From: Candidatus Poribacteria bacterium
GTDB lineage: Bacteria; Poribacteria; WGA-4E; JAJDTR01
DNA length: 64,000 bases
Assembly (NCBI GenBank): GCA_965222225.1
Contig: CBDCTK010000002.1
Span: forward strand, 4,896,001 to 4,960,000
Direction of reading: 5' to 3'
Shown here: positions 4,531 to 49,573 of the stretch, one piece after another
Numbering within the stretch: the first letter of the stretch is position 1
Layout of the letters: the number at the start of each line of letters is the position of its first letter
The notes under the pieces: model-generated
The model's input: only the letters and a program-made list of their open reading frames with translations
Database searches by the model: none
Told to the model about the DNA's origin: nothing
Made by a program: the position numbers and the translations under genes

Positions 4531-4581
4531 GTCAAGTGACTGAACAGGGAACGCGATAGTAAATCCCGTGCGATAGAGAAC
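4531..4581 (+). repeat. 34-bp GA-hairpin mini-repeat (one full unit plus a right half)
   Basis: GTC-aagtgactgaacagggaac-gcgatagtaa-ATC followed by gtgcgatagag; matches the units at 7305, 13664, 20120, 28506 and 48130. Confidence 0.75.
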
Positions 4582-7232: not shown

Positions 7233-7441
7233 TACTATTTCGCGTCATTAAATAATAGTGCGTATGATGCTCAATTGTATCATTCTCTTTCTCCGTAGGC
7301 GGGCATCAAACGACCGAAAAGGGAGTGCAATAGAGATCCCCTTGCCCGCCTTGCGCAGTGACAAAGCACCTTACACCACTCTACACAAGTTTCTTTACTT
7401 GATCTGCGCAATCAATGCACTTGAATATTCGAGAAATGGTA
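7233..7441. mobile_element. MITE-like element with TACYATTTC terminal inverted repeats, carrying a GTAG-REP and a GA-hairpin unit
   Basis: Left end TACTATTTC (7233), right end GAAATGGTA (7433-7441). The body aligns by eye with 28580-28700 and 48014-48253. Confidence 0.6.
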
Positions 7442-13653: not shown

Positions 13654-13816
13654 GTAGGGTGGGATCAAACGAGTGAATAACGAGTGCGATAGAAATCCCC
13701 TCAAATGAGTGAATAGCGATCAACTGAGTGGTTAACGAGGGATCAAGCGAATGGATAATGAGTGCGATAGTGAATCCCCATAGAAGATCCCGTGCGAAAG
13801 AGGTCCCCTGCCAACC
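13654..13816 (+). repeat. GTAG-REP containing an array of GA-hairpin mini-repeats
   Basis: GTAGGGTGGG...CTGCCAACC encloses full units at 13664-13697 and 13742-13776 plus partial units. Confidence 0.75.
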
Positions 13817-28232: not shown

Positions 28233-28450
28233 GTCCGTATCTCCTTACGTGACACGCGCGTTTATCGCGAGTGCACTGTAAATAAACTTCGATGATCTCG
28301 CTCGCAGTGGAGTCACAAATTCGCGGCGCACCAAGAAAATTTATTCGAATTTGGAGATTAAAACTGAGGCGGCATTCCTTGATGCGATTGAAATGGTTCT
28401 CGATCCGTTATAATTCTTAGGACATACACAGTAACAGGAGCATACTACAA

Positions 28451-28702
28451 TAGGCGTGGATCAACCGAGTGAATAACCAGGGATCAAGAGTATGGATAAT
28501 CACCGATCAACTGACTGGTTAAGGAAGGCGATAGTAAATCTTGATAGAGTTCCCATAGGGAACGCGATAGAGATTTTAGTGCGATAGAAATCTCCTTGCC
28601 CCGCCGACTTTGCGTGGAGATAAGGCTTCTTACTCCGCTCCATGTACGTTTCTTCACTTGATCCGCGTAATCAATGCACTAGTGTTTTAGATAGATGGTA
28701 TA
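28451..28702 (+). repeat. REP with stacked GA-hairpin mini-repeats plus the right arm of the MITE-like element
   Basis: TAGGCGTGG...TTGCCCCGCC encloses two left halves, one full unit (28506-28540) and right halves. 28580-28700 aligns with 7325-7441. Confidence 0.75.
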
Positions 28703-28730
28703 AAAAAACATTGTATCGGGATTTCGACTC

Positions 28731-31205
28731 CTAGTCAATGGGAATCGTTCCATTCGCCGAAGAAGAGGAAGATTGATTCATGTCTCCCGATGAATCACGT
28801 TTCAAAGTGAGGTAGAAACGACTGCCTTTACCAATTTCGCTTTTCGCCCAGATTTGACCACCGTGCAGTTCGACTAGATTCTTGACAATCGGCAATCCTA
28901 AACCGATTCCACCGACAGAACCGCTTTTGGAATTAGTTGCCCGGTGAAAGCGATCAAAAATGAAGTTCACATCCGTGTCGGGAATGCCCACTCCCGTATC
29001 TTCAATACACACTTGGATTTCTTGCTTGGATGGAACTGCGACACTCACTTGAATGCGTCCGTCATGTCCGGTATATTTGACGCCGTTATCCAGCAGATTC
29101 GTCAAGATCTGTTTCATCTTGTCAGTGTCCACCAATGCGATGACATCGGGAGGGCAGTCGAGTCTAACACAAATCCCTTTCTGACTTGCCGCCGATTGCA
29201 TCCCGTCAACCGCTTCCTCAAGAATGGGTCGAAGCTGGAGCGGTTCTAGCTGCAGCGTCATCTTTCCCGACTCGATGCGTGAAAGGTCGAGCAAGTCGTT
29301 GATGAGTCGAATCAATCGATCGCAATTTTCCTCCACACGTAGCAAATAATCCTCTTGTTTTTCCGAAATCTTGCCTCCAACACCATCTAGCATGTTATCC
29401 ACAAAACCCTTAATATGCGTTAATGGGGTTCGGAGTTCATGAGAGACGTTGTCGAGAAACTGAGATTTGAGACGGTCCAACTGCATAAGTTGGTCGTGAC
29501 TATCTTTGAGGGCATCGGAAATATTGTTGAAATCTGAAACAAGATCCTTGCCCATTTCATTTCCAAACCAAGTTTCAGATTGCCCATTAGCTGGCATTAT
29601 ACCCCCGTAAGTATTTAGGTAGGTCGCCATCAATTGCTTGCGTGCCTGCTCCATCGCCTCTGTCCGAGCGTTCAACTGGGCGTACAGCGTTGCGTTTTCG
29701 ACTGCCGTGGCGCCTTGATGCGCGAGAATCCCAAGCAGGTCGAGATCCGATTGGGTGTAAGGTTCTTCCGATAGTTTCTCGCCGAGCACAAGCAGTCCAA
29801 CAAGATTTTCTTGATTTTTCGTTCGCGTCACAAAAGGAATCCACACCGCAGAGCCCAGCAGAGATAGAAGATTGTCTGATGAAGCGTCCGAAGGTGCCTC
29901 TATATTGAGTATTTCAATGCTATTCTCATCAAATGGTATGTTTGTAAAATCGAGAGGTTTTTTCGTGCTTTTCAACAAATCTACCAATGGTTGCGACAAC
30001 CTCAGATGTGTTCCGGTAGGTAGCATTTCCATACCGACATATGCCTCGGGCAAAAATTGCGACTCATCGGAAGACGTCCGCTGCATCAAAACACCTCGAC
30101 TAATATGCATCGCTTCGGTTACTTGTCGCAAGAGAGTGTAAACGAGGATTTCCAAGTCGAGGATGGAATGAAGCGTCTGGCTCAATGTTAAAAGCGTCTG
30201 GCGGTAATTGTATGCTTCACGGTCAAATGCACGATCTATCAGCTTCTGAATACGAGTCTTGGCGGGCGCAAAAAGCAGTGCGGCTGTGAGCACGGATACC
30301 GCGGTCAACGCCCATGAACGGGTCGGCCTATGGAAAAACAGTGTTAAGCCTTGAATACACAACAGATAGATGACTAACGCGAAACCGCTTACCAGCGTGT
30401 AAACCACGCTCCGATTGATGATTAACTCGATATTCATCAACCGGTGTCGAATGATTGCGACGACGTAGCATGTTGGAATTAAGCACAGCGTGTAGGCAGA
30501 GAACCGTACAGAGGGAATTGAAATGTCCGTTACTCTAGGTATAGCTAGGAAGATTGCTTGTGGTAGTGTGCCGGCAACGATTCCAAGTAACAACCATCGC
30601 GCTTGGCGGCGTTGAGACGCCGAGGGTGCCGCGAAACACGTATGCAATAGTAACAGTTGCCCAATAGTCGAATAGAGGAAAAGAAAACCGACCGCAACAC
30701 CTTCCAAGGACGGAAGTTGTATGAGAAAAAACTCTCGATCGTAGTTTTGTCCGCTGAAGTAGAGAAACGTCATGGCGAAGACAAGGACAACACCCGGTAC
30801 GTAAAGAATTTTCAACAACCATGTGTGGTGCTGAACTATACGCTTCTCTGATGGGAAGATGGCAAAGCAGTGGAGAAAAAGGCAGGGCAGAATGGCTGCC
30901 GCGACAAATTGCGCAATTGGCACAATTCGACTACTTAACGTTCCTTCATTGACAGAGAATGTTGCGTCAACGGAGCAGGCGCTCATGAAGCCCAGACTCA
31001 TCAGGTAGGAAATTCGTGCAGCACGATTGTCAGGCTGCTGCATCCACGCGAGCGCTGCCACCACCCAAGTGAGGAGCCCGACTAGATAAAAATAGCTTGT
31101 TTCAGGAGTATCGCGTGCTTCGGCGAAGCTCCGTGTCCCGACGATGAGGTAGACGCCGGAAGCGGCAATGTAGAATACGGTGGTAAGATCGCGTTGGATT
31201 TTCAT
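28731..31205 (-). CDS. Membrane sensor histidine kinase (multi-TM, GAF, HisKA, HATPase)
   Basis: H-box VSHELRTPL, N-box NLLDNGVKY, DTGVGI and GLGLPIV; GAF-like segment LVGLLVLGEK. Confidence 0.93.
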   Translation of the reverse strand: MKIQRDLTTVFYIAASGVYLIVGTRSFAEARDTPETSYFYLVGLLTWVVAALAWMQQPDNRAARISYLMSLGFMSACSVDATFSVNEGTLSSRIVPIAQFVAAAILPCLFLHCFAIFPSEKRIVQHHTWLLKILYVPGVVLVFAMTFLYFSGQNYDREFFLIQLPSLEGVAVGFLFLYSTIGQLLLLHTCFAAPSASQRRQARWLLLGIVAGTLPQAIFLAIPRVTDISIPSVRFSAYTLCLIPTCYVVAIIRHRLMNIELIINRSVVYTLVSGFALVIYLLCIQGLTLFFHRPTRSWALTAVSVLTAALLFAPAKTRIQKLIDRAFDREAYNYRQTLLTLSQTLHSILDLEILVYTLLRQVTEAMHISRGVLMQRTSSDESQFLPEAYVGMEMLPTGTHLRLSQPLVDLLKSTKKPLDFTNIPFDENSIEILNIEAPSDASSDNLLSLLGSAVWIPFVTRTKNQENLVGLLVLGEKLSEEPYTQSDLDLLGILAHQGATAVENATLYAQLNARTEAMEQARKQLMATYLNTYGGIMPANGQSETWFGNEMGKDLVSDFNNISDALKDSHDQLMQLDRLKSQFLDNVSHELRTPLTHIKGFVDNMLDGVGGKISEKQEDYLLRVEENCDRLIRLINDLLDLSRIESGKMTLQLEPLQLRPILEEAVDGMQSAASQKGICVRLDCPPDVIALVDTDKMKQILTNLLDNGVKYTGHDGRIQVSVAVPSKQEIQVCIEDTGVGIPDTDVNFIFDRFHRATNSKSGSVGGIGLGLPIVKNLVELHGGQIWAKSEIGKGSRFYLTLKRDSSGDMNQSSSSSANGTIPID

Positions 31206-40477: not shown

Positions 40478-40549
40478 TGGGCGGTCGCCAAGTGGTAAGG
40501 CACGGGTCTTTGGAACCCGCATTCGTAGGTTCGAGTCCTACCCGCCCAG
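40478..40549 (+). tRNA. tRNA-Gln (anticodon TTG), CCA not encoded
   Basis: Acceptor stem TGGGCGG/CCGCCCA, D-loop AAGTGGTAA, anticodon arm CGGGT-CTTTGGA-ACCCG, T-arm GTAGG-TTCGAGT-CCTAC. Confidence 0.97.
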
Positions 40550-46847: not shown

Positions 46848-47957
46848 TTGGCCTCAAAAGATGAACTTAAGTCGATTCTGAATGCCCCAATATTTCTGGC
46901 GCCAAATACATTTCTACATTTCTATGGCGGCGGAAAACTACGGGCGGAATTCATGGGGGAACCTGAACCTAAAGATGATTACCGATCTGAAGAATGGATG
47001 TTTTCAACAAATCGCGCAATCACTCCAGGCCGCGATAATCCACCGGATAAAGGGTTTAGTCGCATTCAACTTCCAGGCGGCGAAATGGTGTTGCTCAAGC
47101 ACCTGTTGGAGGCGTTTCCCAATGAAACGCTGGGTGAGCGCCATGTCGATAAATTCGGTCCGAATTTGGGAGTGCTCCTCAAAATCTTTGATGTCGGCGA
47201 CAATTCCCACATTCCTATCCACTGGCACCCCGCACCCGAGTTCGCCCAAGAACACCTCAATTCCCCGTTCGGCAAAACCGAGGCGTGGATTATCATTGGG
47301 ACAAGACCCGGCGCGAAGGCTTGGATTGGATGCAAGGAGACCCTTTCAAGGGCGGAATTTGCGGAGTTGATGCACGGGCAGGACATTGAATCTTTGCGCA
47401 GTTTGATGCACTTTCTAGAGCCGAAAGTTGGCGAGGTCATTTACGTTCCACCCGGCGTCATCCATTCGCTCGGCAGCGGCTTGTGTGTTCTTGAGCCGCA
47501 AGAGCCAACTGACTGGAGTATTCTAGCCGAATGGGAGGGATTCCCATATGAGAGTGAGGACGGGACGCTCGGGCTGGGCTGGGATCTGGCGCTTAAAGCG
47601 GCAGATTTTAACAAGCTTGAGGTAGATGAATTGAATGGCTATATCAAGCGGACGCCGGAAAAGATTCGAGGAGAAAACGGAAACCACGAGGAACGGCTAC
47701 TTCCTGACGAGGCAACGCCATATTTTCAGGCATCACGTTTAATCATCGATTCAAAGCTGAACATGCCTGCGGGGAGAGGATTTCACTGCCTCGTAATCTT
47801 ACAAGGTCGAGGTAAACTGAGTGGCACGTTTGATGATATTCCGATTGAGCGTGGAAAATCGGCCTTTATTCCTGCCTGCCTCTCAGCGTACGACATTGTC
47901 AACGCGGGTGACATGCCGATGGAAGTCGTCTGCTGCTATCCACCAGCCGTGACTTAA
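46848..47957 (+). CDS. Class I mannose-6-phosphate isomerase-like cupin
   Basis: PIHWHP, KTEAW, IHSLG and EPQEPTD. Confidence 0.8.
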   Translation: MASKDELKSILNAPIFLAPNTFLHFYGGGKLRAEFMGEPEPKDDYRSEEWMFSTNRAITPGRDNPPDKGFSRIQLPGGEMVLLKHLLEAFPNETLGERHVDKFGPNLGVLLKIFDVGDNSHIPIHWHPAPEFAQEHLNSPFGKTEAWIIIGTRPGAKAWIGCKETLSRAEFAELMHGQDIESLRSLMHFLEPKVGEVIYVPPGVIHSLGSGLCVLEPQEPTDWSILAEWEGFPYESEDGTLGLGWDLALKAADFNKLEVDELNGYIKRTPEKIRGENGNHEERLLPDEATPYFQASRLIIDSKLNMPAGRGFHCLVILQGRGKLSGTFDDIPIERGKSAFIPACLSAYDIVNAGDMPMEVVCCYPPAVT

Positions 47958-48013
47958 CCTGCTGGCTGTGCCGTGAATACGCTCTAGAGATTTGGCATTC
48001 CGTCCGTTACTTG

Positions 48014-48253
48014 TACCATTTCGTTTGAATAACGTTGCGTATAATGTTTTGCAATTATACTACTATGAAGAAACCAATGCCAACCATTACCTTGTACACC
48101 AACCCTGGTAGGCGGGGATCAAGCGAACGATCAACTGAACGAATAGTGAAGGCGATAGTAAATCCTGTAGTGAGTGCGATAGAGATCTTATTGCCCCGCA
48201 TTGGAGACACTTGATTGACGCCAGCAATGCACTACGAATCTAGGGAAATGGTA
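48014..48253. mobile_element. MITE-like element (TACCATTTC...GAAATGGTA) carrying a GTAG-REP with nested GA-hairpin units
   Basis: Perfect 9-bp terminal inverted repeats; REP GTAGGCGGGG...CCCCGC at 48108-48199; unit 48130-48164 nested inside unit 48118-48187. Confidence 0.7.
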
Positions 48254-49573
48254 TTAGAATGCCCCCATGAATTTGGCTTGCCGCGCTTTTTCTTCGTCCA
48301 CGAAACTCAATAGAATGAGGCCCACGACAAAAAAGAGCATTAGAGAAATGATGGAAAGCCGTGCGGTTCCGGTCACCTGCCGGATGACTGCAAATGCGAT
48401 GGGCCCCCAAATCGCGGAAAATTTTGCAAACACAGAGTAGAATCCGTAAAACTCGGCGCTAGCTTCCTCTGGTACCATGGAGCCGTACAGAGAGCGGCTC
48501 AATGCTTGTGAGCCTCCGAGCACAACCCCGACGATGACGCCCAATACGAAAAATTCAGTGGCGGAATGCAGAAAATAGGCGTAGGTGACAACACCGCTCC
48601 AAAGGACGAGTGACAGCATCACCGCCCGCTTCGCTCCAATTTTGCCCCCTAGCCACCCGAATAAGGGCGCACCAGCCGCAGCGATAATCTGGATGACTAG
48701 CAGTGTTACCATTAACACGGTAACAGATAGATTCAACTCTTCTGTTCCGTAGATTGATGCCATGCTAATTACGGTCTGGATGCCATCGTTATAAACCATA
48801 AACGCAATCAAAAAAAGCAGAAGATGCTTGAACTGTCGAACCTTTCTCGCCGTTTTGAGCGTGCGTTCCACTCCGATGGCAATGTACGCTATGATTAAAG
48901 GTTTGGATTGGTGCTTTTCCGGAATCTCTTTTCTACCCTCGCCCTCCTTCAGTAATTTCAACGTGAAGAGTGTAAATCCGCCCCACCACAGCCCTGCCAT
49001 TGATATCCCGATGCGAGCGGCGAGTGCCTGTTCGATTCCGATTATCTTGTAACCAGCCACCAAGCCGAGAGCGATTGCAAATTGCAATCCCCCACCGACG
49101 TAGCCGAAAGAGAATCCCTTCGCCGAAACTCTGTCAAGTTTGTCCTCAGAGGCAATCTGAGGCAGAAACGCGTCGTAGAAGACATTTGCGCACACATAAC
49201 CGAATTGGGCAATAACAAAGATGATTACTGTTTTCCATATATCTCCCGACTGACAGAAATACAGCAGTGTGGTAAACAGACTGCCTGTATAGGCAAAGGA
49301 TAAGAGAAATTTCTTTTTCGCCGAAGAGAAGTCGGAAATGGCGCCGAGCACAGGGGCAAACAGAAATGCAAGAAACGCGGCAAAGCCAATCATGTACCCC
49401 CATAGAGAGGTGGCACTGATCGTGCTATTCCCGATTTGAACTCCTTCTGTTCCTACAATTACTCTCGCGAAGTAGCTTTGTAAGAGCCCAGCGACTACGG
49501 TTGTGACATAGGCAGAGTTTGCCCAGTCGTACATGCACCAACCGAAGATGGTCCGTTTCTCATTTTTAATCAT
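48254..49573 (-). CDS. MFS transporter (UMF1/ATG22-like)
   Basis: WCMYDWANSAY, FYDAFLP and QALSRSL; ~12 TM segments. Confidence 0.92.
   Translation of the reverse strand: MIKNEKRTIFGWCMYDWANSAYVTTVVAGLLQSYFARVIVGTEGVQIGNSTISATSLWGYMIGFAAFLAFLFAPVLGAISDFSSAKKKFLLSFAYTGSLFTTLLYFCQSGDIWKTVIIFVIAQFGYVCANVFYDAFLPQIASEDKLDRVSAKGFSFGYVGGGLQFAIALGLVAGYKIIGIEQALAARIGISMAGLWWGGFTLFTLKLLKEGEGRKEIPEKHQSKPLIIAYIAIGVERTLKTARKVRQFKHLLLFLIAFMVYNDGIQTVISMASIYGTEELNLSVTVLMVTLLVIQIIAAAGAPLFGWLGGKIGAKRAVMLSLVLWSGVVTYAYFLHSATEFFVLGVIVGVVLGGSQALSRSLYGSMVPEEASAEFYGFYSVFAKFSAIWGPIAFAVIRQVTGTARLSIISLMLFFVVGLILLSFVDEEKARQAKFMGAF

Follow-up and report, generated by a model that had tools for sequence, protein, structure and literature searches.

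The nearest described elements to the repeat reported here are the small dispersed repeats (SDRs) of cyanobacteria. SDR1-8 of Nostoc punctiforme and relatives reportedly sit in MITEs and other repeats and nest mutually; they are said to be 21-27 nt long, to share a hairpin with compensatory changes and to belong to heterocyst-forming cyanobacteria. To our knowledge, the enzyme that moves them is not known. Elements of the IS200/IS605 group and their miniature derivatives are recognised as a folded single strand ('peel and paste'), have distinct left- and right-end hairpins and guide sequences, go in 3′ of a fixed short motif, duplicate no target letters, and show an orientation bias linked to the direction of replication. 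Integron attC sites are recombination sites set by the shape of a single-strand hairpin together with a few fixed unpaired bases; they measure 57-141 nt, contain RYYYAAC/GTTRRRY boxes and are accompanied by cassettes and an integrase. REP elements are described as having one end marked by a conserved tag, GTAG or CGTC (PMC3733652), and SDR5 is reported to insert precisely between the third and fourth letters of HIP1 GCGATCGC, i.e. GCG^ATCGC (PMC4390886).

The window analysed here is a stretch of 64,000 nucleotides from a Candidatus Poribacteria bacterium (hereafter G000). Reading of the sequence at positions 48118-48187 of the forward strand revealed two copies of a unit of approximately 35 nt, one lying in the loop of the other (Table 1). 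The unit follows the formula (G)ATCAA-XX-GA-YY-GNATA-Y'Y'-GA-X'X'-GCGATAG-AGATC. Read as nested, all four variable pairs form in the inner unit (48130-48164; CT/AG and AC/GT) and all four form in the outer unit (48118-48187; GC/GT, including one G-T, and AC/GT). The initial annotation had described a 34-bp unit with hairpin arms, inserted into the loop of another copy of itself. The nesting is confirmed, with both outer arms and the GCGATAG tail retained. The inner unit is indeed complete; its length, however, is 35 nt rather than 34, and its arms, whilst present, are not plain complements and consist of two Watson-Crick or G-T pairs on each side of a GA opposite GA. The doublet and its host MITE occupy the 296-nt gap separating two convergent genes, a 369-aa ORF and a 439-aa transporter. 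When up to one mismatch was allowed, the unit pattern matched six times in the window, against 0.00 expected from 100 shuffles. An Rfam search of the window returned no family except one tRNA gene (40478-40549). In our reading, which we consider probable, the locus holds a ~35-nt hairpin repeat as a doublet carried by a MITE, and each unit represents an inserted element that is very small and non-autonomous.

Table 1. Features of the nested doublet, its host element and flanking genes, and further units in the window (positions relative to the first letter of the window).
Feature	Position	Strand	Remarks
Flanking gene, 369-aa ORF	46848..47957	+	weak cupin matches, under curated cut-off
MITE-like host element, length ~240 nt (172 nt with empty hairpin)	48014..48253	+	18 paralogous copies in G000
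MITE left TIR, TACCATTTC	48014..48022	+	9 nt, 100% complementary to 48245-48253
MITE internal hairpin, GTAG tag plus left arm, GTAGGCGGGG	48108..48117	+	
Outer unit, left half, ATCAA-GC-GA-AC-G	48118..48129	+	uninterrupted in paralogue G000:C2:1200925
Inner unit, complete, ATCAA-CT-GA-AC-GAATA-GT-GA-AG-GCGATAG-TAAATC	48130..48164	+	exact unit-pattern match 48130-48158
Outer unit, remaining loop and right half, CTGTA-GT-GA-GT-GCGATAG-AGATC	48165..48187	+	outer arms pair 4/4 across inner unit
TTATT spacer, then MITE-hairpin right arm GCCCCGC	arm 48193..48199	+	
MITE right TIR, GAAATGGTA	48245..48253	+	9 nt, perfect
Flanking gene, 439-aa ATG22/MFS-type transporter	48254..49573	-	PF11700, E 8e-75
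Further unit, 1 mismatch	4531..4559	+	pattern match
Further unit, 1 mismatch	7305..7333	+	pattern match
Further unit (core)	13664..13692	+	pattern match
Further unit (core)	13742..13770	+	pattern match
Further unit, 1 mismatch	28506..28534	+	within multi-level nest of a MITE hairpin

The unit resembles the SDRs in that it nests in itself (136 of 719 copies in G000), forms a hairpin with compensatory changes and has no enzyme that we could find. Its insertion point is also similar to that of SDR5, lying after GCG or GGG with the letters past the cut reading ATC. However, the unit is 34-36 nt long, compared with the reported 21-27 nt, and comes from Poribacteria rather than cyanobacteria, a comparison made by description only. 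Moreover, the ATC is part of the Poribacteria unit and not of the host site, and the unit contains a tandem GA opposite GA and a GCGATAG bulge. HIP1 is not enriched in G000 (120 occurrences vs approximately 87 expected). The unit is similar to REP, BIME and REPIN sequences in being an extragenic imperfect palindrome of 20-40 nt that is present in hundreds of copies, and the genome has GTAG-tagged REPs together with Y1 genes that have inverted REPs of their own as flanks. Unlike a REP, the unit bears neither a GTAG nor a CGTC tag, beginning with (G)ATCAA and ending with GATC(C), and the GTAG at 48108 is that of the host hairpin. Its stems are hypervariable rather than conserved, it is a guest inside REPs, and, in a further departure from REP/RAYT systems, in which the repeats flank a RAYT gene and share its distribution, none of the four Y1 families examined is co-distributed with it. 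The initial annotation did not recognise the unit as a described element, and we likewise found no description of it in the literature searched; neither the 12-mer GCGATAGAGATC nor its complement gave a text match. The repeat family is of a kind already known and poorly understood, that of very small inserted repeats, here in a new phylum and with unusually clear structure and empty sites.

With 719 complete copies, the unit is the most abundant repeat of the 5.70-Mb genome, and GCGATAGAGATC is the commonest 12-mer there (284 copies). The frame ATCAA-NN-GA-NN-N5-NN-GA-NN-GCGATAG had 727 strict matches in G000, in which the four variable pairs were Watson-Crick or G-T in 96.1, 95.9, 97.1 and 97.0% of copies, each showing three to four pair types. 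Among the 2908 pair cells of these copies, G-T far outnumbered A-C (308 vs 35) and the pairing therefore belongs to the strand as written. An independent set of 75 units (72 distinct) was collected from relatives' genomes by a pattern that fixes the constant letters only. The inner helix of the 72 distinct units was 97.2% paired, with all four pairs varying on both sides; the covariation score was reached by 0 of 500 shuffles, and controls with slid partners paired at 24-42%. The terminal GATC...GATC pairs in 72/72 of these units and is often lengthened to GGGATC...GATCCC. Stem types X and Y occur in 54 combinations with a mutual information of 0.52 bits, compared with 0.08 expected; they are not independent and so subfamilies exist. 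With 7 fixed letters, the half-unit token ATCAA..GA.. gave 1340 isolated matches, most of them due to chance, and counts resting on this token alone were excluded.

The top strand of the canonical unit folds to exactly this hairpin (-16.6 kcal/mol with RNA parameters, z -2.4; -6.5 with DNA parameters), and in the fold of the bottom strand the inner helix is absent. This inner helix consists of 2+2 pairs around GA opposite GA, with little stability by nearest-neighbour rules, and the 92-nt stretch at the doublet locus was no more stable than its shuffles, whether folded as DNA or as RNA. From general knowledge of such motifs, a tandem sheared G.A pair would be expected to stabilise the inner helix.

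Across G000, the nested units (19% of the total) directly follow a partial outer unit. The inner unit comes after YY-G, in the loop, in 28 cases, after the loop in 21, after Y'Y'-G in 22, after X'X'-G in 61 and after the GCG of the tail in 4. Classified by position, outer type and inner type, these 136 cases give 116 distinct combinations, of which 104 were seen once, a diversity that points to numerous independent events. Among the loop-nested cases the prevailing design has an outer YY = AC/GT with an inner XX = CT/AG, and two combinations have 6 copies each. In the 17 strict loop-nested doublets, full pairing (4/4) of the inner arms is seen in 15, and the outer arms likewise reach 3/4 or more in 15. 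Outer-left with inner-right reaches at least 3/4 in only 1 of the 17, whilst inner-left with outer-right often reaches 3/4 and is less discriminating. The order is left1 left2 right2 right1 with matching arms, which slippage would not produce, in agreement with the initial annotation. A leftover extra tail was found at 92/136 nested units vs 122/521 solitary units. Since the extra tails of those 122 solitary units have no recognised outer left half, further processes, tail duplication or decay for example, also act. Unit tails (GATAG + A/G-ATCC) are also seen at many sites as extra copies or tandem runs without matching left halves, e.g. at C2:4635341 and from G000:C2:4960790 onward, and are left unexplained by nesting.

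The doublet seen in the window is not restricted to this locus. In the congener G005 it occurs in the same MITE family at a different locus; it occurs in three other host hairpins in G005 and G001, and again in G027, a genome of the second unit-bearing genus. The doublet, being present in other species and other hosts, therefore spreads as a whole. The nesting at 48130 thus probably arrived with the MITE, or as a ready-made doublet, and is older than the locus. The recurrence of the doublet in other genomes of the genus and in the second genus also makes an assembly artefact unlikely. The short-read contigs of four public runs do end inside the unit, none of them spanning the nest with 31 letters on both sides, as might be expected if the nest were an error of assembly or consensus in a highly repetitive stretch. 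However, genomes of other species and of another genus were assembled separately and contain the same doublet, and G000 has 17 to 28 such doublets whose varying stem letters still pair. We therefore regard an artefact as extremely improbable. Public runs containing the locus number 20, some of them labelled sponge metagenome; in the contigs of the four examined, no presence/absence allele of a single unit was seen. A 'GCGGA' joint (48126->48168) in the run contigs was considered as an empty allele and rejected, as it represents a solitary paralogue type.

The initial annotation placed the doublet in a GTAG hairpin inside a MITE-like element, and this is borne out by the terminal inverted repeats, the 18 paralogous copies and the absence of the element in congeners. 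The two flanking genes are neighbours in nine congeners. In G009 and G002 approximately 241 nt are missing, so that the matches abut, and G001 has a 33-nt spacer where the MITE sits in G000. Moreover, one contig of run X7 joins 47969 to 48254, omitting the MITE. The 240-nt element is thus confirmed as a MITE by its TIRs, its many non-coding copies and an empty orthologous site. Its empty hairpin reads GTAGGCGGGG-CATCTT-GCCCCGC (arm GGCGGGG). Six of the paralogues in G000 have this empty hairpin, 9 contain one unit and 3 contain two nested units. In the 9 copies with one unit, the unit lies at the same point of the empty hairpin and shows 7 different stem-type combinations. The 3 two-unit copies are nested at three different positions: in the window the inner unit is in the outer loop, at C2:4283648 it comes after Y'Y'-G, and at C2:2585991 it comes after X'X'-G, where the remaining outer tail CATAGAGATCC follows the inner unit. 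The right part of the MITE contains CTTGATTGACGCC (48210-48222) in 18/18 copies, which is 77% complementary to GGCGGGGATCAAG (48111-48123), a stretch made of the hairpin arm plus the 5′ end of the unit. This complementarity may be due to chance or may be the remnant of an old inverted unit.

Other repeats were also found both empty and filled. REP_A (GGGTGCG-CAC-TGCGCACC) is empty in 70 instances and holds one unit in 15; the corresponding numbers are 24 and 7 for REP_B, 82 and 5 for REP_C, and 20 and 2 for REP_F. The REP that flanks a Y1 gene (CCAGCGGGG-CG-ACAGGT) is empty in 21 instances and holds one unit in 4; most genomes have it empty, whilst G000 and G002 have it filled. At a gene end, G001 has an empty hairpin (GTAGGGTGGG-CA-CCGCCCACC) whose orthologue in G000 is filled. 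This is the one clean empty/filled pair in approximately 100 kb of synteny between these two genomes, over which intergenic repeats have been replaced wholesale at 81-89% identity. A claim of the initial annotation, that of a very small non-autonomous element, is thereby sustained, in that non-coding units are inserted in other hairpin repeats and in themselves. An orthologous MITE hairpin holds a three- to four-level stack of units in the window (28247-28731; G000:C2:4924247-4924731) and a different two-level stack in G001 (C1:530443-531231), its content having turned over between species. Units and inverted-unit composites are also inserted in the repeat hairpins of a CRISPR array (G000:C2:2705500-2707710) with a 37-nt repeat starting GTAGCAACCATTGCC and spacers of approximately 36 nt. 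Intact copies of this repeat number 8 in G000 vs 49 in G001 and 41 in G009.

A closer inspection of these sites did not bear out a further proposal, namely that the element targets ATC and is bounded by ATC direct repeats. The empty sites GGGTGCG-CAC, GGGTGGG-CACT, GGTCGGG-CTTCTAG and CCAGCGGGG-CG all lack ATC, and the repeated ATC belongs to the unit's own GATC/GATC end stem (72/72) rather than to a duplication. The letter preceding ATCAA is G in nearly all copies, and this G itself mostly follows C or G. Units thus appear to insert 3′ of G without target duplication. The empty loop is kept exactly at 1/15 filled REP_A sites (AGATC|CAC) and at 1/5 filled REP_C sites (AGTTC|CACT), and both filled REP_F sites (2/2) equal the empty site plus 35 nt, with one extra C. 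At the other filled sites 1-2 host letters are changed, for instance CCC for CAC in 11/15 REP_A and CC for CG in the Y1 REP, the altered C's extending the GGG...CCC end stem. That the host letter after the insert is often changed indicates that replacement or later change is involved. One unit type, AG/AT, occupies 12/15 filled REP_A sites. Two further ideas about targeting were rejected. Units do not always lie at the tip of a flanking stem, as no signal appeared at fixed offsets and the pairing is that of the unit's own GGGATC/GATCCC end. Nor do the stem letters guide the target: X and Y shared 0.27 and 0.23 bits with the two preceding letters (0.12 and 0.11 expected), a modest association which arises because composites spread together.

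These short and variable junctions, and the alteration of host letters beside the insert, would also be compatible with units that were never transposed. Mosaic arrays could instead have been built up, as in mosaic repeat clusters, when neighbouring or distant units recombined, switched template or slipped at short motifs common to them (GATC/GATA, GCGATAG, ATCC), with pairing restored by repair in extruded hairpins. The tandem runs of tails and the tails without a matching left half are in keeping with such a process, as are the stem types, which form subfamilies and yet mix (0.52 vs 0.08 bits; 54 combinations), and the failure to find an enzyme or a parent element. However, whole units of constant length are found at one point of otherwise empty, unrelated hairpins, these hosts include a CRISPR repeat and the REP of the Y1 gene, and some of the insertions are letter-perfect. 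The 116 distinct nested combinations also speak against a mosaic origin, as does the fact that the halves nest and do not alternate, with outer arms that match across the insert. We consider a mosaic origin quite unlikely and prefer insertion of whole units.

In total, 176 genomes of the Poribacteria phylum were scanned for the unit pattern. All genomes of the window's genus (10/10) contain approximately 400-980 matches, and all those of one genus of another family (4/4) contain approximately 130-160. The remaining genomes have 0 or a handful, and the reversed-pattern control gave 0 throughout. A scan of prokaryotes with one genome per species returned at least 104 stretches, and among the matches listed all were 'MAG: Candidatus Poribacteria bacterium'. 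Stray units were seen in otherwise unit-free genera (G057 contigs C72, C83, C91 and C116; G146 C61 and C362; G010 C38 and C42). As they sit on few small contigs of fragmented assemblies, we suspect that these may be mis-binned contigs. Stray contigs aside, the unit family is confined to two genera among the 176 phylum genomes.

Within G000, 663/717 units lie outside a crude ORF map which covers 79% of the genome. Unit orientation had no relation to that of neighbouring genes (717 units), nor, across genomic bins of G000, to gene-strand bias. It did track GC skew at the local scale, being anticorrelated with it over 47 bins of 100 kb (Spearman -0.51, p 2e-4), the written strand being the C-rich strand in 481/717 units. 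The link to skew could be the trace of a single-strand, replication-linked process, and we take it as a hint only, because G000 shows a weak, patchy skew and its units lie in clusters. Clustering on G000:C2 is strong, reaching 25 units per 10 kb at 2.70 Mb.

The persistence of the unit in 10/10 genomes of one genus and 4/4 of another might alternatively point to a selected function. The unit would then be a structured site, for instance a DNA hairpin to which a protein binds or a motif of a small RNA, that is multiplied passively with MITEs and REPs, the nesting being a by-product. Strong covariation and invariant unpaired letters accord with this, and composites do spread whole, as seen in the AG/AT type of 12/15 filled REP_A and in the recurring doublet. 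Against this reading, the units show no orientation to flanking genes, and Rfam gave nothing beyond the tRNA in the window. One and the same host family carries differing unit types or none, units disrupt CRISPR repeats, and the number of copies differs from genome to genome (approximately 130 to 980), most of the phylum having 0. We judge a selected site to be very unlikely as the explanation, and return to the units as inserted elements.

We then sought a gene that could mobilise the units, the initial annotation having suggested a search for HUH/Y1 transposases with units beside them. Y1 genes exist, but none of the four families examined tracks the units. G000 contains five Y1_Tnp matches, the best being a 157-aa IS200-like protein. 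Its gene is flanked by its own inverted repeat AAGCCCCAGCGGGGCGACAGGTGTATAG in 12/12 loci inspected, and the units near it merely sit inside AAGCCCCAGCGGGGCGACAGGTGTATAG repeats in some genomes. Moreover, this family is present in 105/176 phylum genomes, including many that are unit-free, and was not found in 2/4 unit carriers of the second genus. The distribution of three further Y1/RAYT-like families does not follow the units in a panel of 31 genomes. The Y1 gene has arrays of AAGCCCCAGCGGGGCGACAGGTGTATAG beside it at G000:C2:3078758-3082228 and at homologous loci in 11 other genomes. The gene (its family in 105/176 genomes) and AAGCCCCAGCGGGGCGACAGGTGTATAG form a RAYT/REPIN-like system without a GTAG tag.

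A search for a longer 'parent' element bounded by unit halves found none, and 4/4 arm matches were not enriched at 1-3 kb (8/74). Two half-pairs at an equal spacing of 1094 nt were considered as such an element and proved unrelated. Because CRISPR repeats had been invaded and the unit is of spacer-like length, Cas1-Cas2 was also considered as the integrase; Cas1-Cas2 prefers palindrome borders. This idea gained no support, the GTAGCAACCATTGCC-type CRISPR repeat family being present in 14/176 genomes, with 0 genomes of the second unit-bearing genus and 5/9 of the other genomes of the window's genus among them.

Taken together, the findings suggest the following. A MITE, probably already carrying the doublet, landed between the two convergent genes. 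Units go in 3′ of G, mostly where a stem has its edge (SG^C), apparently without target duplication, and the 3′ junction varies by 0-2 nt. As the unit itself offers several G sites, one following YY-G in the loop and others following Y'Y'-G and X'X'-G, units also land in units. A unit with another in its loop retains both arms, and the doublet itself has reached new hosts. The active form may be one folded strand, the top strand, with a GATC/GATC end stem, a GCGATAG internal loop and a 2+2-pair helix around the tandem G.A, G-T pairs being tolerated on this strand alone. A trans-acting enzyme would read the fixed unpaired letters and the shape, which would leave the stem letters free to vary.

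The nearest analogy for the mover would be a single-strand transposase of the HUH/Y1 type. Similar to IS200/IS605 elements, the units have a skew-linked orientation; they may also insert 3′ of G without target duplication, and recognition of a folded strand is presumed for them. In contrast to these elements, each unit has one hairpin, the target is just G or SG, the biased strand is C-rich and no cognate TnpA was found. The unit also shares with attC sites its freely varying stem letters and few fixed unpaired bases, but at 34-36 nt is shorter than the 57-141 nt of attC, and neither RYYYAAC/GTTRRRY boxes nor cassettes were seen with the units. One tentative possibility, which we think unlikely though worth stating, is a mover of a type with no established tie to transposition so far, distinct from all Y1 families of these genomes. 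Such an enzyme would recognise the 35-nt folded strand by its shape and a few fixed unpaired bases, and paste it 3′ of G at the edge of any hairpin, whether REP, MITE palindrome, CRISPR repeat or another unit.

How tiny non-coding repeats spread is a long-standing question, dating from the description of REPs and of the cyanobacterial SDRs. The sharply defined structure, free stem letters and defined empty and filled sites of the present family make this question testable. Moreover, there are 14 carrier genomes (two genera, with 130-980 copies each) and more than 150 genomes with none or a handful; owing to this contrast within one phylum, genomes could be compared to look for the mobilising gene. 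Practical interest would attach to an enzyme able to insert a 35-nt hairpin at the edges of hairpins. In the sponge-symbiont genomes that carry them, the units remodel intergenic DNA and fragment short-read assemblies, and a CRISPR array has been degraded by them. If an enzyme of the tentative new kind moves them, they would be among the smallest self-targeting mobile DNA known, mobile even with a 35-nt cargo in the loop.
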